This document shows positions 4,593 through 31,589 of a stretch of 64,000 nucleotides of DNA, in pieces (within the stretch, counting starts at the first letter, position 1; every line of letters starts with the position of its first letter). The notes beneath the pieces are model-generated. The model had not been told where the DNA came from. It worked only from the letters and a program-made list of their open reading frames with translations, and made no database searches. The translations under genes and the position numbers were made by a program. Source of the stretch: a virus (Duplodnaviria > Caudoviricetes); IMG/VR virus record IMGVR_UViG_3300036982_000217, positions 6,205 to 70,204 of that record; one strand, written 5' to 3'.

Positions 4593-5141
4593 ATGAAAAC
4601 GGCATTATCAAAATTAGTAATATCAGCAGGCTACAGAGACATGGATCATTTTGTTACAAGTGCATTTCATCCTCAAATGGCTGGAACATGCACAGGAGTA
4701 AGTGCATTATTTGCAGGTATTGCTTATTATTTTAATGCTGTGTTTGGCATTGTTCTTCCAGTAGGAATAGGTATTATACTTCTTTTTGGACTTGAGTTCT
4801 ATACAGGACTTAAAGCTTCTAAATCAGAAGGTAAAAAATTTGACTCAGAACTATTTGGAAAAGGCTGGTTTAAGTTATTTGTTTACATGCTTATGATAGG
4901 AATATCAAATGCAATGGCAACTAATATAGAAATAAAACCTATATTTGGTTTTACTTTTAATGTGTATGAGTGGCTACACTATGCATTTTATAACTATGTA
5001 ATTATTAATTTAATCTGGTCAAACCTAGAAAATTTTAAAAGATTAGGATGGACAGAGTATTCTCCAATACTTAAACGTCTATCAAAATATATAAAAGATG
5101 AACCAATAAAACCAATAGATCATGAAGGAGAAAACAATTAA
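4593..5141 (+). CDS. putative holin
   Basis: Several hydrophobic helices, a WSNLENFKRLG motif resembling the SILEN motif of holin-4-type proteins, and a charged C-terminus. Confidence 0.65.
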   Translation: MKTALSKLVISAGYRDMDHFVTSAFHPQMAGTCTGVSALFAGIAYYFNAVFGIVLPVGIGIILLFGLEFYTGLKASKSEGKKFDSELFGKGWFKLFVYMLMIGISNAMATNIEIKPIFGFTFNVYEWLHYAFYNYVIINLIWSNLENFKRLGWTEYSPILKRLSKYIKDEPIKPIDHEGENN

Positions 5142-5893: not shown

Positions 5894-5918
5894 TCTAAAC
5901 CAATTAAATTAATGTCTT

Positions 5919-6221
5919 ATGGAAACAATTAACCAACAACCAGAAATGCAACTAACTCCTGAACAGTTAGAAGAGCAAAAAGAAAAAATGCTAGAGTTTT
6001 ATCAAACTTCTATGCCTTATTTAAGAGCACAATTAGATTATGAAGAACTGCTTTTAAAAATTGATGAAGCAAGATTTAAAAGATCTAGTATTCAATATCA
6101 ATATGCTATGATGATGGCTCCTCAACAAGAAGAAGCAGATGAAGAAAGAGGTTCAGATTTTGATATTGATAAAGAGTCTAGTACAGCAGATCAAGGAAAA
6201 AGAAAGCTTAAAAGAGGCTAG
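5919..6221 (+). CDS. hypothetical protein with helical N-terminus and acidic/basic tail
   Basis: First ORF after the promoter, 100 aa. Confidence 0.65.
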   Translation: METINQQPEMQLTPEQLEEQKEKMLEFYQTSMPYLRAQLDYEELLLKIDEARFKRSSIQYQYAMMMAPQQEEADEERGSDFDIDKESSTADQGKRKLKRG

Positions 6222-6944: not shown

Positions 6945-7234
6945 AAAATGTACTTAATCTAATCTGGCAAAATAGATCACAGATATTTGAAGGTATTAAA
7001 AACTCTGTCATTAGAGATGAGACAGTGGAAGAAATATCTAGACTCAGATATGATATTTGTGATGAGTGTGAGCATAAAGGTAGAAAGTGTGCAGTAAAAG
7101 GAACAGCACCTTGCTGTAATGAGTGTGGATGTTCACTTAATTTTAAAACAAGATCATTATCATCTGAATGTCCACTTGGTAAATGGCAAGCAATTATTAC
7201 AGAAGAACAAGAAGAACAATTGGATAAGTTATGA
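6941..7234 (+). CDS. Cys-rich zinc-binding protein (DUF6171-like)
   Basis: CDEC...C...CCNECGCSLNFKTRSLSSECPLGKW. Confidence 0.65.
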   Translation: MKNVLNLIWQNRSQIFEGIKNSVIRDETVEEISRLRYDICDECEHKGRKCAVKGTAPCCNECGCSLNFKTRSLSSECPLGKWQAIITEEQEEQLDKL

Positions 7235-8064
7235 GTATAGTATTTAATGCAAAAGATCATAGCTATAAAAGCAATGATGGTTCAGAAATAAATTGGATTA
7301 GTGTTACCACACTAGTATCTCATTTTAAGAAACCTTTTGATGCAGAAAAGATTGCAAAAAAAGTTTCTAAAAATAAAAGATCTAAATGGTTTAATATAAA
7401 CCCAAAAGATATTATATCCATTTGGAATGCTGAATCAGAAAGAGCAGTAACTCTTGGTACATTTTATCATAACCAAAGAGAAGCTGACTTATGTTCTTTA
7501 GCATCAATAGAAAGAGAAGGAATAACTGTTCCAGTATTTAAACCAAATGATTTAACAAATGGAATTAAATTAGCACCATCTCAAAAATTAGAACCAGGCG
7601 TGTATCCAGAACATATGGTTTATCTTAAATCAGTTGGAATCTGTGGACAGTCTGATCTTGTAGAAGTAGTAAATGGATGTGTAAACATTATTGACTATAA
7701 AACCAACAAAGAGATCAAGACTGAATCTTACAAAGATTGGGAGGGAGTTTCTGAAAAGTTACTCCCACCTTTATCTAATTTAGATGATTGCAACTTTAAT
7801 CATTACTGTTTACAGTTAAGTATCTATATGTATATGATACTTAAACACAATCCTAAATTGCAACCCGGAAGAATGTTTATTCATCATATACTATTTGAAA
7901 CAGAAGGAGAAGATAGATATGGATATCCACTTACCAGATATGATGATAATGGAGACCCAATTGTAAAAGATGTAATTCAAATAGACATCCCATATTTAAA
8001 AGATGAAGTAACAGCTATTATGCATTATTTACATGATAATAGAAATAATATTAAAAAGAAATGA
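7231..8064 (+). CDS. PD-(D/E)XK (Cas4/RecB-like) nuclease
   Basis: ICGQSDLV...IIDYKT...YCLQLSIY carries motifs II, III and the QxxxY motif intact. Confidence 0.8.
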   Translation: MSIVFNAKDHSYKSNDGSEINWISVTTLVSHFKKPFDAEKIAKKVSKNKRSKWFNINPKDIISIWNAESERAVTLGTFYHNQREADLCSLASIEREGITVPVFKPNDLTNGIKLAPSQKLEPGVYPEHMVYLKSVGICGQSDLVEVVNGCVNIIDYKTNKEIKTESYKDWEGVSEKLLPPLSNLDDCNFNHYCLQLSIYMYMILKHNPKLQPGRMFIHHILFETEGEDRYGYPLTRYDDNGDPIVKDVIQIDIPYLKDEVTAIMHYLHDNRNNIKKK

Positions 8065-13569: not shown

Positions 13570-13601
13570 TAAATTTTTGAAGTTTATTTCTTATATTAAA
13601 T
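13570..13601 (+). promoter_or_regulatory. palindrome TAAATTTTTGAAGTTTA plus TATATTAAAT box
   Basis: Intergenic, upstream of the scaffold/MCP operon. Same palindrome family as 5854, 42208 and 49336. Confidence 0.6.
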
Positions 13602-13621: not shown

Positions 13622-14869
13622 ATGGAAGAATTAGAAAACAAATCTGACAAAGGTCAGGTACAAGACTCTACAACAGTAGGCAGTGTAGATGTTAATATTG
13701 ATGAGATGTTTGGAATGCCGGGGGCAGAAAATGTAATGCTACCAGCAGAAGAAGAAGAAAAACCAAAGTCTGTATTTTCTAAAGAGACTACAGACACCTC
13801 GTTCCTTGACAAGCCTGTTTCTAAAGAAGAAGCAGCAAAGAAAGAAGAAGTTGAAGAAACTATTGCTGAGTTAGATAATCTAATTACTCAGGAAGAAGAT
13901 GCCGGCAATAAAGGAAGACCAAAGATTGACAAATCAGGTCTTGCAGATCTTGCAGTTAAAATGATTGAGGAAGGAACTCTAATTCCATTTGATGATGATA
14001 AACCACTAGAGGAATATACAACAAAGGATTTTAGAGAGTTATTTGAAGCAAATTTTCAAGAAAGAGAAAATGCAATCAGAGAAAATACTCCAAAAGAATT
14101 TTTTAATGCACTTCCTGAAGAGCTTCAAGTTGCAGCAAAGTATGTAGCAGATGGTGGACAAGATCTTAAAGGTCTCTTTAGAACTCTAGCTCAAGTAGAG
14201 GAGATGAGACAACTAGATCCAGATAATGAGTATGATCAAGAAGAAATTGCTAGACAATACTTATATGCTACCAATTTTGGATCTCCAGAAGAAATTGAAG
14301 AAGAAATCAATGACTGGAAAGACATGGATAGACTTAAACAAAAGGCTAACCAGTTTAAACCAAAGTTAGATAGAATGCAAGAAGAAATTGTTGCTAGACA
14401 ACTTGCAGAACAAGAATTAAAAAGGCAACAACAAGAAGAAGCGGCAAGAGTTTATACGGATAATGTATACAGCACTCTTGTTAATGGTGAGATAGGTGGA
14501 ATAAGATTAGATAAGAAAGTACAAAGTATGTTATACTCCGGATTAGTACAACCTAATTATCCATCTATATCTGGTAAACCTACAAACTTGTTGGGCCACT
14601 TATTAGAAAAATATCAGTTTGTAGAACCAAGACATGATTTAATTGCAGAAGCACTTTGGTTACTTGCAGATCCAAATGGATACAAGTCAAAGATAAAAGA
14701 ACAGGGTGGTAAGCAAGCTACAGAAAAAGTAGTAAGACAATTAAAAACTGAGCAATCAAGAAAAATTACTTCTTCTGTAAATGATGATAGAGAATATGAT
14801 ACAAAAACAAGAACAAGCAAACCAGCACAAAAAACACTCTCAAGAGGAGGATTCTTCAAGAGATTTTAA
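13622..14869 (+). CDS. acidic scaffold-like capsid assembly protein
   Basis: Between portal and MCP. Very acidic N-terminal half and a coiled-coil C-terminal half. Confidence 0.6.
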   Translation: MEELENKSDKGQVQDSTTVGSVDVNIDEMFGMPGAENVMLPAEEEEKPKSVFSKETTDTSFLDKPVSKEEAAKKEEVEETIAELDNLITQEEDAGNKGRPKIDKSGLADLAVKMIEEGTLIPFDDDKPLEEYTTKDFRELFEANFQERENAIRENTPKEFFNALPEELQVAAKYVADGGQDLKGLFRTLAQVEEMRQLDPDNEYDQEEIARQYLYATNFGSPEEIEEEINDWKDMDRLKQKANQFKPKLDRMQEEIVARQLAEQELKRQQQEEAARVYTDNVYSTLVNGEIGGIRLDKKVQSMLYSGLVQPNYPSISGKPTNLLGHLLEKYQFVEPRHDLIAEALWLLADPNGYKSKIKEQGGKQATEKVVRQLKTEQSRKITSSVNDDREYDTKTRTSKPAQKTLSRGGFFKRF

Positions 14870-14897: not shown

Positions 14898-16517
14898 ATG
14901 GCAACTCCAATTTTAAACAATGGGATATTCCTGAGAGATACAGCCTACCAAGCTTCATCGCATGTAGACTCATATCACTTAGTGAATATGTTAAAAGATG
15001 CTGAACCTATGGATTTAGGTCCAGTAGACCTTTGGGCTATGGCTCAAAAAGTAGAAATGCCCCTTTACCAGCTTTCTAGCTTTGGTGGCAAAAATGTAAT
15101 TATGGTTGATAATGCTCGCGGAGAGTATAAGTGGCAGACTCCTGTCTCTACAGATCTTCCATATGTTATTGAAGATATTGAACCAACTAATACTTTCAAA
15201 GGTATTGATGGTACAACCTTCAAAATTAAATTAAGCCGTAGAGAGTTTGGTCACGGTGACATTGTTACTTATGACAAGTATAATGGTGTGGAATTGTACA
15301 TTACAGATGAAGATATTCTTCCTGTTGGTGATGCATTTATCTACACAGTTCAACTTGTAAACAATGACAACACTAGATTCTTAGATAATGCTTATTTAGC
15401 TAATGGAACAAGATTCTTTAGAAAAGGATCTGCAAGAGGTGAGTATGGTGAAAGATTCTCTGACATCATCACACAAGCTGGTTTCCGTGAATACTATAAC
15501 TTTGTTGGTGGTGCAGAAGCTCACGTACATTATTCTATCTCTTCTAGAGCAGACTTAATGATCAAAGGTGGTATGAATGCAGATGGTACAGTTCCTGTAA
15601 CTGAGATCTGGAGAACATTTGACAAAAATGTTACTGATCCTTCAATCACATCTTTAGAAGATATGGTTAAAGTTATGGGTAAAGATGCTGTTAAAAAAGC
15701 ATTTGATAATGGAGATTTGTCTAGAACTTTCTTGACAAACATGGAAGCAGCTCACCTTTCTAAAATTGCAACTGACATTGAGACTTACTTAATGTGGGGA
15801 CAAGGAGGTAAAGTTAAGCAAGATGGTCCAGATGATATCAGATTATCTGTTGGACTTTGGCAACAATTGAACAATGCGTTCAAAAGAGTATACAACAAAA
15901 ATAACTTTACTCTTGACTTATTCCGTGGAGAAATCTATAACTTCTTCAATGGTAAGGTTGAGTTCCAAGGACCAGATCCAAAAAGATCTCTTATTGTACA
16001 AACTGGTATGGGTGGTATGCGTATGGTTAATGAGGCCATTAAGCAAGAAGCTATCTCTTCAGGTTTGTTAATTCAGGCTGCTGATATTGGTGCTATCACT
16101 GGTAAAGGTATGGACTTGAACTTTGGATTTGCTTATACTTCATATGTAATTCCATTCTTGGCAAATGTTAAGTTTGTTCTTAACCCAGCATTTGACAATG
16201 TTCATACAAATGATATTGAAAACCCAATCATAGATGGTTTCCCATTATCTTCTTACAGCTTTATCATCTTTGATATCACTGATAACACTAATGATAACAT
16301 CTTTATGTTGAAACTTTCTTGGGATAACCAATTGAAGTGGTGGTACCAAAATGGTACTATGGACTACATGGGAAGAACTCAAGGATTCCAGTCTTCTGGA
16401 CAATTCAACGGGTACCGTGTGATGATGTCTCAAACAATGCCAGCTATCTGGGTAAAAGACCCTACAAAAGTCTTGAAAATTGTTATGAGAAACCCAATCA
16501 CTGGTGGCTCTCTATAA
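14898..16517 (+). CDS. major capsid protein
   Basis: 539 aa, after portal and scaffold, followed by a strong terminator. Sequence style matches crAss-like HK97-fold MCPs. Confidence 0.85.
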   Translation: MATPILNNGIFLRDTAYQASSHVDSYHLVNMLKDAEPMDLGPVDLWAMAQKVEMPLYQLSSFGGKNVIMVDNARGEYKWQTPVSTDLPYVIEDIEPTNTFKGIDGTTFKIKLSRREFGHGDIVTYDKYNGVELYITDEDILPVGDAFIYTVQLVNNDNTRFLDNAYLANGTRFFRKGSARGEYGERFSDIITQAGFREYYNFVGGAEAHVHYSISSRADLMIKGGMNADGTVPVTEIWRTFDKNVTDPSITSLEDMVKVMGKDAVKKAFDNGDLSRTFLTNMEAAHLSKIATDIETYLMWGQGGKVKQDGPDDIRLSVGLWQQLNNAFKRVYNKNNFTLDLFRGEIYNFFNGKVEFQGPDPKRSLIVQTGMGGMRMVNEAIKQEAISSGLLIQAADIGAITGKGMDLNFGFAYTSYVIPFLANVKFVLNPAFDNVHTNDIENPIIDGFPLSSYSFIIFDITDNTNDNIFMLKLSWDNQLKWWYQNGTMDYMGRTQGFQSSGQFNGYRVMMSQTMPAIWVKDPTKVLKIVMRNPITGGSL

Positions 16518-16531
16518 TAGATCAAAGTATG

Positions 16532-16560
16532 AGAGGGAGAGTAAAATCTCCCTCTTTTTA
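16532..16560 (+). terminator. Rho-independent terminator after MCP
   Basis: AGAGGGAGA-GTAAAA-TCTCCCTCT stem followed by a T tract. Confidence 0.85.
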
Positions 16561-16594: not shown

Positions 16595-17620
16595 ATGGAA
16601 AATTCAGAATTTACAATGGTGGAAATTAACAAAGCTGCCACCGCAAGAAAAACAGCTATTGCTATTAGACCATACTTTGACAGCAGAATGTCAAACATGG
16701 GATTAGAAACATATGGACAAGTATTGTTTGATGGTGTAAAACACCAAGAACAGTTAGCTTGTCTTGAAGTTAATGGTGTAACAAGATATATTACTGGACT
16801 AAATGAATTTGCTCCAGAAATTAAAGTTCTACCAAATGATGATAGAGCAGCAAAAATTAGAGAAATAAGAACAGCAGTTGCAGAACTAGAAAAAGATTTA
16901 GCAGCTAATGTTTTAGATATTGAGGATAAAGATTTTTGGAATAAAGTAAAACTACTTAAACCGGATAACAAAGACTTCTGGAATAAGATAGATATTAAAT
17001 GTGGTAATGAGCCAGTATTTTTAGATCCAAAAGATCCTTTTGATAGAATTAAAATTTATGCTATTGAAGCTGGTGCATTTTCAATTATTGCAAAGAGCTA
17101 TGAAGATGCAAGATCAAAAGCAAAACCACCAAAGTTTTATCTAGATAAAGAAGAAGAAACTGTAATGGTAAGAACTGAATACAAGAAAATGCGTAACAAA
17201 GCACTTTCTGAACTTCAGAAATTATTTGATAAAAATAGTACTAAACTGTTCTACATTGCAAAAGTTGTTGATATTAACAGTACACAGTACAGAAAATCAA
17301 CACCAAATGATATTATCTATGAGAACATGGATATGTATATTAATGGAGAGGGTGGTGAGACTAATAAAGAAAGAGCAGCTAAATCTTTCATTGATGCAGT
17401 AAATATGGATATGGAAACACTAAAAATTAAATCAATTGTTAGAGATTCCGTATTTTTTAAGTATATTATAAGTAAGGCAGATGGTCATATTTATCATGCT
17501 AAGTCTAATAGCTTACTTGGTAGAAATGTATCAGATGTTGTAGAGTACTTTAAGAACCCTTTAAATGAAGATATTCTTAAAGATGTTACAGCTTCTGTTG
17601 AAAAATTATGGAACTCTTAA
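16595..17620 (+). CDS. capsid-module protein of unknown role
   Basis: 341-aa ORF immediately after the MCP, a position usually occupied by a conserved head gene in crAss-like phages. Confidence 0.55.
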   Translation: MENSEFTMVEINKAATARKTAIAIRPYFDSRMSNMGLETYGQVLFDGVKHQEQLACLEVNGVTRYITGLNEFAPEIKVLPNDDRAAKIREIRTAVAELEKDLAANVLDIEDKDFWNKVKLLKPDNKDFWNKIDIKCGNEPVFLDPKDPFDRIKIYAIEAGAFSIIAKSYEDARSKAKPPKFYLDKEEETVMVRTEYKKMRNKALSELQKLFDKNSTKLFYIAKVVDINSTQYRKSTPNDIIYENMDMYINGEGGETNKERAAKSFIDAVNMDMETLKIKSIVRDSVFFKYIISKADGHIYHAKSNSLLGRNVSDVVEYFKNPLNEDILKDVTASVEKLWNS

Positions 17621-24426: not shown

Positions 24427-24447
24427 ACTAACTAAAAACCAATAATT

Positions 24448-24606
24448 ATGGCAATGTGCCCAAACTGTAAAGCTAAGATGTCATGTGGATGCCAGAAAAG
24501 AACAGCATCAAATGGACAACAAGTATGTTCTAATTGTTTAGGAAAATATGAAGCACAGCTTAAGTTAAATAAGAAAAAAGATAATCTACAAAAATACACT
24601 AATTAA
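24448..24606 (+). CDS. small 52-aa Cys-rich (CxxC, CxC, CxxC) protein
   Basis: MAMCPNCKAKMSCGCQKRTASNGQQVCSNCLGKYEAQLKLNKKKDNLQKYTN. Its stop overlaps the next ATG. Confidence 0.7.
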   Translation: MAMCPNCKAKMSCGCQKRTASNGQQVCSNCLGKYEAQLKLNKKKDNLQKYTN

Positions 24607-28181: not shown

Positions 28182-29183
28182 ATGGCTCATAATACTTGTA
28201 CAAATTGTGGATGTAAAAAATGTGGATGTTCTGATACTGCACTAATATCTCCAGCACCATGTCCTACTCCAGCAGGATGTCCTGATCCAATTGCATGTTC
28301 TGAGGTATTTGATGCAGAATGTGTTGTATATAGTGGATTACCAATTGAATGTATACAACAAGTTGTTGTTGATACTAATACAAATTTAGCAGATGCTATT
28401 AATGCAATTATTAGTTTTTTCTGTGAGTATATTACTGGTCCAGACTTAGGATCTGTTGTAGAGGTATGTAATACAAATGAGTATTTAGATATAACTTCAG
28501 TTACTGATCCAATAACAGGAGTGACTACATATACAATTTGTTTTGATCCTACACAATTACCAGTTGTACAACTTGAATCAGGAACAGGAATTAATATTAC
28601 TTCATCTACAGTAGGTAATACAACTACATATACTGTAAACGCAACAGCAAAAGAATTTTTCTATGATGACAATGTAGAAACAATAAATATTAATACTGCT
28701 GCAACACCTGGAGTTTATAGTTTTCCAAATGTAAACTATTCAGCATTATCATATACTAATGCTGGACCTGCTGCAAAGAATTATAAAGTATGGGTTTCTT
28801 ATAATACAATCACATTACCTGCTACTGCAAATAGTTCTAATATTGCAAACTGGGTAGACGGAGCAATTATAAAAACTGTAGGGTTTATTGATACAGTAAT
28901 GTATCAAAGTTTAGGAACAACTTTATTATCTGGATCACTAATGGATGGACCAAATGCTACAGATACTGTAAATAGAAGTTCATCACCTCCTGATCGAGTT
29001 TTAACAACAGCAGGAACACCAGTAGAGTTTAGATTTTTAAATGGTCAAATTCCCTCTAATGTTTCTTTCTTTTATTATATTACATTAAACGCTGGTGAAA
29101 CAGTTAGTTTAAAATTTAAAACAAAAGATGCCACATCTGCAGCTTGGTTATTACAAGCACAAATGATGGTTGAACAAATATAA
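28182..29183 (+). CDS. putative tail fibre protein
   Basis: The N-terminal AECVVYSGLPIECI is paralogous to 26491. GTGINIT...TTYTVNA fibre-shaft motif. Confidence 0.65.
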   Translation: MAHNTCTNCGCKKCGCSDTALISPAPCPTPAGCPDPIACSEVFDAECVVYSGLPIECIQQVVVDTNTNLADAINAIISFFCEYITGPDLGSVVEVCNTNEYLDITSVTDPITGVTTYTICFDPTQLPVVQLESGTGINITSSTVGNTTTYTVNATAKEFFYDDNVETININTAATPGVYSFPNVNYSALSYTNAGPAAKNYKVWVSYNTITLPATANSSNIANWVDGAIIKTVGFIDTVMYQSLGTTLLSGSLMDGPNATDTVNRSSSPPDRVLTTAGTPVEFRFLNGQIPSNVSFFYYITLNAGETVSLKFKTKDATSAAWLLQAQMMVEQI

Positions 29184-29249
29184 AGTTGCAGTTTGTTGGT
29201 TTCTGTAACAACTGGTAGAACCTCTGCACTCGCAGGGGTTTTGCTTTTA
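29184..29249 (+). ncRNA. candidate 3'UTR small RNA: seed stem-loop plus terminator
   Basis: Stem GTTGCAG/CTGTAAC with loop TTTGTTGGTTT (29192-29202), the exact reverse complement of AAACCAACAAA at 13610 and 16582. Followed by a terminator hairpin. Confidence 0.5.
29219..29249 (+). terminator. Rho-independent terminator
   Basis: AACCTCTGC-ACTC-GCAGGGGTT stem (one G-U pair) followed by TTGCTTTT. Confidence 0.8.
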
Positions 29250-29257
29250 TTCCTATA

Positions 29258-29291
29258 TTTGTTAAAGTCATTTATTTTTAGTATATTAAAT
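29258..29291 (+). promoter_or_regulatory. putative promoter TTTG-N20-TATATTAAAT
   Basis: Same architecture as 640 and 22062. Upstream of the tail operon. Confidence 0.55.
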
Positions 29292-30543: not shown

Positions 30544-31589
30544 TGGATTTTAATTATACTCTTAGATATAGAACCTTTGATCAATTGTTAGAAGATGTAA
30601 CAGTTGATTTAAACACCTTTGCTCTAGAAAATATGATAGAGCCCCAGCAATTAATTAAGCTGGTTAAAAAATTAAATTATGATCTTGGTCTAAGAGTAAA
30701 TCAAACTAAAGAAGTTATTCTAGATGTATGTCATGGTAAGGTAAAACTACCAGATGATTTTTATGTATTTAACTTTGCATTGGTGTGTGGTAACTATGTT
30801 CAACAAGTTGGATATGGACCAATGTCTGCAGGAACCAATATACAAGAAGTAAGATATCAAGAAACTCCATCTACTACAGATGTGTGTGCACCACCAACAG
30901 TTAACTGCAGAACATGTAATTCTAATCCATGTAACAAAACTGCAGCATGTGATCTTAATTTCCCTATAGTAGATCCAATACCTACAGAATATGATCCAAA
31001 TAATCCCTATGGTGATACTTGTATTGCACCTAGAGTTTTTATGAACTGTAAAGGTGAAAAATGGGAACTAGTTCAAGTGATGAATAATTCCGGAGCTACT
31101 AGAGTTTACACAGATTTATTACCATTAAGAATGAAGGCTAGTCAAGAAATAGAATGTGACTGTCCAAATCTTTATTTTAATACTGCAAACCAAGGTTGGA
31201 TAAAAGGCGGCTTTCTATTTACAACATTTGAAACTGGTAAGGTATATTTAAATTATCAAGGTGAAATGGTAAATGATCAAGGATACTTAATGGTTCCAGA
31301 TCATGATCTAATAAATGAATATTATGAATATGCTTTAAAATCTAGAATACTTGAAAACCTATATCTTAATGGTGAGGATGTAGCACAAAGAATGCAGTTA
31401 ATTGAACAAAGATTAAGAGCAGCTAGAAATCAAGCATTAAGTGTTGTCAATACACCAAACTTTAAAGAACTTGAGAAGATGTGGTGGACAAATAGAAAAG
31501 CAATGTATGGTAAGTATTACTATATGTTTGAAAGTTATTCTCCTAATGCAGCATACTATAGAAACTTAACCGGCAATAGAATAATATAA
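30543..31589 (+). CDS. ring / tail tubular protein (P22 gp4-like class)
   Basis: KLPDDF...LFTTFETGKVYLNY...GYLMVPD pattern. Directly upstream of the muzzle. Confidence 0.7.
   Translation: MDFNYTLRYRTFDQLLEDVTVDLNTFALENMIEPQQLIKLVKKLNYDLGLRVNQTKEVILDVCHGKVKLPDDFYVFNFALVCGNYVQQVGYGPMSAGTNIQEVRYQETPSTTDVCAPPTVNCRTCNSNPCNKTAACDLNFPIVDPIPTEYDPNNPYGDTCIAPRVFMNCKGEKWELVQVMNNSGATRVYTDLLPLRMKASQEIECDCPNLYFNTANQGWIKGGFLFTTFETGKVYLNYQGEMVNDQGYLMVPDHDLINEYYEYALKSRILENLYLNGEDVAQRMQLIEQRLRAARNQALSVVNTPNFKELEKMWWTNRKAMYGKYYYMFESYSPNAAYYRNLTGNRII

Follow-up and report, generated by a model that had tools for sequence, protein, structure and literature searches.

A deeply conserved RNA hairpin at the end of the structural operon of crAss-like phages and its candidate role as a base-pairing regulator of tagged start sites

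The window analysed here is a 64-kb stretch of a 70.2-kb IMG/VR virus contig (32% GC), within which all gene calls lie on the + strand, as do 56 of the 65 calls on the whole contig. The ORF at 14898 encodes the major head protein (MCP) and the ORF at 31589 (1826 aa) matches the Crassvirus muzzle protein family PF25731; judged by these two proteins, the phage is therefore crAss-like, yet it appears to lie far from any cultured phage, since the best GenBank capsid match, to the Leptolyngbya phage Lbo-JY46, reaches only 27.6% identity. This closest cultured phage by capsid protein has a cyanobacterial host. Within IMG/VR, the phage group is represented by more than 600 capsid-gene matches. Concerning the host, a ferritin-based search returned only a 5.5-kb MAG contig and one Omnitrophota match. 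The former (JACIXZ010000027.1, from a Tissierellales MAG) carries a ferritin 59% identical to that of the phage (window 21417-22046), and this contig is probably a binned phage fragment and not a clue to the host.

A short hairpin lies directly 3′ of a fibre ORF, at the end of the head-tail operon and before an operon with the muzzle and giant proteins, and this position is syntenic among relatives (Table 1). Its stem arms read GTTGCAG and CTGTAAC, with one G·U among the 7 bp, and its loop corresponds to TTTGTTGGTTT at the DNA level. The intrinsic terminator that follows closes the structural operon, and the candidate RNA would take its 3′ end there. A preliminary description of this locus, made from the letters alone, had reported the hairpin, the loop and the terminator, and all of its coordinates and sequences for them were found to be exact. 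When folded, the hairpin and terminator region reached a dG of -28.3 kcal/mol (z -4.3), with 0 of 200 shuffles as stable, and the two elements were predicted to fold independently of each other. No conserved promoter was found upstream of the hairpin, and a free sRNA would therefore require processing. Note that right after the terminator (window 29254-29289), a block kept in about 75 relatives contains TATATTTG or TACATTTG, then TTTTTAGTATATTAA. The Bacteroidota -7 promoter consensus is TAnnTTTG, which we take the first of these motifs to fit. The second ends 2-3 nt before the ATG in some relatives and, because of this short distance, a leader element is a likelier identity for it than a -10 box.

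Table 1. Positions of the hairpin, its neighbouring elements and the leader tags in the window
Feature	Position	Strand	Remarks
Weak candidate target, AAACCAAU	5897-5904	+	14 nt before the ORF at 5919
Leader tag AAACCAAUA	5109-5117	+	Before the 72-aa ORF at 5122; weaker candidate target; -10.8 kcal/mol
Leader tag AAACCAACAAA	13610-13620	+	1 nt before ATG 13622; acidic scaffold-like gene 13622-14869
Leader tag AAACCAACAAA	16582-16592	+	2 nt before ATG 16595; post-MCP gene 16595-17620
Leader tag AAACCAAUA	24436-24444	+	Before the 52-aa Cys-rich ORF 24448-24606; one G·U on pairing; predicted duplex with the loop -9.6 kcal/mol
Fibre ORF	28182-29183	+	Directly 5′ of the hairpin
RNA hairpin	29185-29209	+	7-bp stem, 29185-29191 with 29203-29209; 11-nt loop UUUGUUGGUUU, 29192-29202
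Intrinsic terminator	29214-29251	+	14-bp stem, 4-nt loop, then U-run; stem-loop 29214-29245

To describe the hairpin among relatives, the proteins encoded by the two genes that follow the element were searched against IMG/VR, which gathered about 160 loci, and in every one of these loci that covers the region, the hairpin was present upstream of the homologue of the 193-aa gene; more than 100 relatives keep both the hairpin and the terminator. The unbiased pair count comes from an alignment of loci found by protein homology (A1; 43 sequences), in which all 301 of 301 stem cells of the 43 distinct relatives pair, with up to four pair types per position; as an example, one stem position shows U-G, U-A, C-G and G-C. 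A second alignment (A2), made with MAFFT, puts the 3′ arm out of register between loops of 11 and 12 nt, and pairs were counted by a stem-anchored script, which demanded at least 6 pairs and leaves pair 7 and the pair types as its only free observations; by this count, 5 of the 7 stem positions are variable and show between three and six pair types each. The 94 distinct hairpin-plus-flank sequences hold 25 distinct 7-bp stems, all fully paired, and 8 loop variants, each containing UUGUUGGU. Even the most distant protein relatives (48% identity), with the stems GUGAUAG/CUGUCAC, GUGGUGG/CUACUAC and GUGGUAG/CUAUCAC, display the same loop. Alignment of the intergenic region across relatives, as the preliminary description had proposed, thus reveals covariation in the stem around a nearly invariant loop. 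The usual layout of an sRNA is a conserved single-stranded seed plus a terminator, and the sRNA-type layout suggested earlier for this locus is borne out by a conserved and accessible loop (predicted unpaired probability of 0.95) and by a terminator 3′ of the hairpin in 93 of the 94 distinct copies, the sequence of which differs between clades. On these comparisons, the hairpin is a genuine phage RNA motif that is deeply conserved, had not been described before and has its structure under selection. Of 50 distinct stems, 36 include G·U pairs, which on the other strand would read as C·A mismatches and therefore point to the + strand RNA as the functional form. The covariance model scores 91.3 bits on the window hairpin (E 4e-19) and detects a single hairpin copy per genome; a second match in one relative (G011, L391:4494-4571) was rejected, as it is a bidirectional terminator only, without the loop motif. 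We also observed that the fibre gene 5′ of the hairpin is often swapped for unrelated genes (loci L084-L152), similarity resuming exactly at the hairpin, and the element appears also to mark a mosaic (recombination) boundary.

Several known identities were considered for this element and set aside. A DGR target-site hairpin was rejected, because a blastn search of the 70-kb contig with 28600-29260 returned the query alone, with no repeat of the fibre 3′ end. An antiterminator (RAT or nut-like) seems unlikely, given that the TGCAG/CTGCA overlap with the terminator is absent in relatives with other terminator sequences. Coding by a minus-strand 51-aa ORF (29116-29271) was dismissed as well, because the loop length shifts by single bases between relatives and the G·U pairs of the stem exist on the + strand only. 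Among GenBank phages, a nucleotide search with the region of the element was without a match, Rfam 15 yielded nothing at the gathering threshold in the window and, close to the element, nothing but sub-threshold noise up to E 10, and a literature search on non-coding RNAs of crAss-like phages returned nothing relevant, the motif-string search giving only siRNA and primer noise. The exact hairpin pattern had 0 matches in 185,579 bacterial and archaeal genomes, which therefore provide neither a host copy nor a prophage hint.

A pattern scan of IMG/VR found the loop also in a second clade, with an MCP only 24-27% identical and with unrelated stems (e.g., AUCAUAG/CUGUGAU, ACCUUAG/CUAAGGU and UGUUUAG/CUAAACA); in the protein-based sample of this clade, even the two closing pairs are exchanged, from AG..CU to GU..AC. 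The covariance model gives 35 bits in the distant clade. A marginal model match (27.9 bits, E 0.003) was obtained in the cultured phage Lbo-JY46 (PP438436.1, ~91569-91647, minus strand; L402:33666-33744), where a 410-nt intergenic region holds an A-U stem of 5 bp with the loop UUUGUUGGUUG, followed by a strong terminator. This element is a possible homologue in a cultured cyanophage. One gene of the same phage (locus 7958) has a AAACCAAU leader.

The loop was said in the preliminary description to be the exact reverse complement of the leaders of the scaffold-like and post-MCP genes, and the coordinates confirm this; the core AAACCAA likewise lies, as described, before the ATGs at 24448, 5122 and 5919. 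Over both strands of the window, AAACCAACAAA has 4 matches against 0.13 expected, a number that 0 of 100 shuffles reach. A third + strand copy (7700-7710), absent from the earlier account, sits inside a 277-aa ORF (7231-8064), distant from start codons, and is probably due to chance. For AAACCAA, 6 of the 23 copies on the + strand fall within 30 nt upstream of an ORF start, and the motif is also found before one ORF lying upstream of the window. The view that the tag belongs to virion genes alone did not hold, since it also precedes small non-structural ORFs and, in a complete relative, minus-strand ORFs.

Leaders of three neighbouring genes were compared in 80 MCP loci (MCP 89-99% identical). 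AACCAA was present in 63 of 67 distinct leaders of the acidic scaffold-like gene preceding the MCP gene and in 58 of 59 leaders of the post-MCP gene (two copies in 40 of them), and in none of the 66 distinct MCP leaders, so that the proposed co-conservation of loop and leaders is observed on orthologous genes. The tag is still present in relatives at 77% MCP identity, it is kept before orthologues of the 52-aa Cys-rich ORF in two relatives (G001 and G004), and in a complete 115-kb relative it stands before several small ORFs, some of them on the minus strand; altogether, the same orthologous genes are tagged in three sampled lineages. In the main clade, the end of AACCAAC(AA) lies mostly 3-6 nt from the ATG, and the 9-mer AACCAACAA occurs 198 times in sense and 0 times in antisense in the 80 MCP loci. 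The distant clade has a shorter tag, AAA(A)CCAA, before the positionally equivalent pre- and post-MCP genes, 20-28 nt from the ATG. In one clade (that of G011; L390-L395 and L485-L491), a second common leader motif, AACTACAT(T), abuts the ATG of the pre-MCP, post-MCP and 338-aa genes.

Two further elements of these leaders were observed. Upstream of the scaffold-like leader (window 13570-13600; relatives L160-L239), AAGTTTA, a gap of 5-7 nt and TATATT are conserved across the MCP loci, an arrangement that looks like a phage-specific promoter. A strong terminator (16531-16556) follows the MCP gene, and this terminator between the MCP and post-MCP genes (window 16531-16560) is kept in nearly all relatives with differing stem sequences; it is probably an attenuator setting the ratio of the MCP to the downstream gene products.

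The proximity of the tag to the promoter-like boxes at the scaffold-like gene could suggest that AAACCAACAAA acts at the DNA level, as the double-stranded site of a regulator that would serve in both orientations, where operons start and where the operon ends, and one such site in two orientations would give reverse complementarity automatically. We regard this as barely credible, because the covariation and G·U pairs of the stem demand a single-stranded + strand form, the spacing of the tag is fixed to the ATG and not to the promoter (the post-MCP copy coming directly after a terminator), and the 198:0 strand bias would have to be explained. The position of the tag at the first gene of an operon that ends in the hairpin, which is seen in both clades, would also agree with pairing in cis, in which the 3′-end loop of the long structural-operon mRNA would bind the tag in its own 5′ leader, that of the scaffold-like gene, closing the transcript and controlling its stability or translation. 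In Staphylococcus aureus, a 3′UTR motif of the icaR mRNA pairs with the ribosome-binding region in its own 5′UTR and blocks initiation. The phage motif resembles it as a 3′UTR motif complementary to a ribosome-binding region; icaR, however, regulates only itself, as a single gene and in cis, whereas several genes are tagged here, mostly on other transcripts. Pairing in cis is quite improbable, since the strong terminator after the MCP gene should make full-length transcripts of 15.6 kb a minority and tagged genes are also found inside the operon, in other operons and on the minus strand.

The main-clade tag lies at an SD-like distance from the ATG, and SD sequences are absent from the leaders of this phage, two observations in line with a positive guide, that is, an RNA that would dock on the ribosome or on an initiation factor and recruit AACCAAC-tagged mRNAs as a phage-supplied SD substitute. 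If so, the phage would own a private initiation channel for chosen genes in a host that ignores SD sequences. Such a guide is nevertheless highly improbable: the MCP gene, for which demand is highest, is untagged, the tag of the distant clade lies 20-28 nt from the ATG, and about 65 nt of RNA contain no evident ribosome-binding feature.

The reading we prefer is direct pairing of the loop with the tagged start sites in trans. In the main clade, loop and tag each have an invariant core, and the two cores are exactly complementary over 9-11 nt. The predicted duplexes of the loop reach -12.2 kcal/mol with the scaffold-like leader and -12.4 kcal/mol with the post-MCP leader, and -5.6 kcal/mol with the MCP leader; the tags themselves are predicted to be unpaired with probabilities of 0.74-0.79 (0.79 for the scaffold-like tag). 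When duplexes were predicted among all start regions, the scaffold-like and post-MCP genes ranked 1st to 4th in four genomes, and 1st and 6th, respectively, in a further one (G012). The real loop has more strong targets than permuted loops in five main-clade genomes (G000, G001, G003, G004 and G012; P 0.02-0.13), but permuted loops at times equal its target number, both motifs being of low complexity (U/G versus A/C). Once relatives are counted, the observed arrangement of hairpin, loop and tag lies far beyond chance.

Two kinds of loop variant served to look for loop-leader covariation; none emerged, both partners being nearly invariant. For the variant with a 5′ G, GUUGUUGGUUU (L112/G008), the matching leader C is not consistent among such genomes. 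The G-to-A variant, UUUAUUGGUUUU, which is found in four second-clade loci outside the 94 distinct copies (L422, L423, L481 and L483), keeps the AACCAAC leader and loses one pair, the pre- and post-MCP leaders of these genomes being the same as in genomes with the canonical loop. The preliminary description had expected a loop both conserved and co-varying with the leader motif; the conservation stood, and neither loop variant came with a compensating change in the leader.

These observations bear on the main rival of the pairing model, in which a phage or host protein, the ribosome or a conserved host mRNA would bind the hairpin in a sequence-specific manner, with possible roles in 3′-end protection, processing, termination control or host takeover, and the match to the leaders is a compositional coincidence. 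It draws on the missing loop-leader covariation, on the permuted U/G loops that also find A-rich leaders and on the distant clade, in which complementarity to the leaders extends over only 7-9 nt of the 12 fixed loop bases. Pairing with the leaders can therefore not explain all 12 fixed bases, and the loop must, on this comparison, answer to a further constraint besides these leaders, for example a protein, ribosome or host target. Against coincidence, the invariant loop core exactly complements an invariant leader core over 9-11 nt in the main clade, the tag stands on the same orthologous genes in three sampled lineages, and the chance of such a match would be ~1% or less, on a rough estimate by reasoning. 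We weigh the two readings unequally: a purely protein- or host-directed hairpin is unlikely, although a serious contender, and a base-pairing regulator of tagged start sites has, in our judgement, about an even chance of being correct.

Under the pairing model, the 3′ untranslated end of the structural operon would encode a conserved regulatory RNA module made of a 7-bp hairpin, which displays the fixed loop UUUGUUGGUUU(U), and of an intrinsic terminator. This module might work as a stable 3′-end fragment of ~65 nt or while still joined to the fibre mRNA. Targets of the loop would be the scaffold-like gene, the post-MCP gene, the 52-aa Cys-rich ORF and a handful of further small ORFs, all of which it would reach by base-pairing with the tag AAACCAAC(AA) located 3-6 nt ahead of their start codons. 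Such pairing would cover the ribosome landing site and most likely lower translation after transcription has reached the operon end, activation being the alternative; the head-assembly proteins among the targets would thereby come under a feedback that acts late. The accumulation of the RNA, its pairing in the cell and the sign of its effect are what we infer from the arrangement described above.

Base-pairing sRNAs derived from 3′UTRs are familiar in enterobacteria, with CpxQ, SroC and MicL as examples. Like these, the phage element lies directly after a stop codon, shares the terminator of its parent mRNA, has no conserved promoter of its own and possesses a conserved seed that is predicted to be single-stranded; the features of the class that are present comprise a 3′ end at a terminator, an accessible seed and seed complementarity on orthologous start regions. 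In phages, the processed 3′UTR RNAs ncRNA1 and ncRNA2 of Pseudomonas phage PAK_P3 accumulate late in lytic infection and have no known targets or function (PMC10914365), whereas here the predicted targets belong to the phage itself. In the SD-less Bacteroides thetaiotaomicron, GibS acts as a repressor by pairing with start regions of mRNAs, and it shares with the phage hairpin a conserved single-stranded seed complementary to translation initiation regions (PMC7366714). The two have no sequence relation: GibS is intergenic and host-encoded with a long unstructured 5′ seed, whereas the candidate seed here is a hairpin loop in a phage 3′UTR. SD-independent initiation is established in Bacteroidia (PMC6847099, PMC7797042); a Bacteroidota host for the phage, the premise of the preliminary description, is an assumption. 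The host of the phage probably has no Hfq-type chaperones.

Similar in design are the cuckoo RNAs of Alphaproteobacteria (CcsR/RSs0680, alpha-r14), in which 2-4 adjacent hairpins carry CCUCCUCCC loops (PMC4615179). As in these RNAs, the loop motif of the phage element is invariant while the stems are free, and the loop complements ribosome-binding regions of mRNAs (PMC4615179). Membership in this family was nonetheless rejected, since the phage has a single hairpin with the loop UUUGUUGGUUU as opposed to 2-4 adjacent CCUCCUCCC hairpins.

Whatever its mechanism, the element is a new and clean RNA motif whose covariation is strong, and the possible homologue in a cultured phage makes it testable. 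If the pairing is real, widespread environmental crAss-like phages would time or dose their head-assembly proteins by means of a tiny RNA that is carried at the 3′ terminus of the structural operon and directed by a private tag at start sites. This would represent RNA-based self-regulation of morphogenesis in a lytic phage and would offer a rare handle on the translation control of mRNAs that lack SD sequences.
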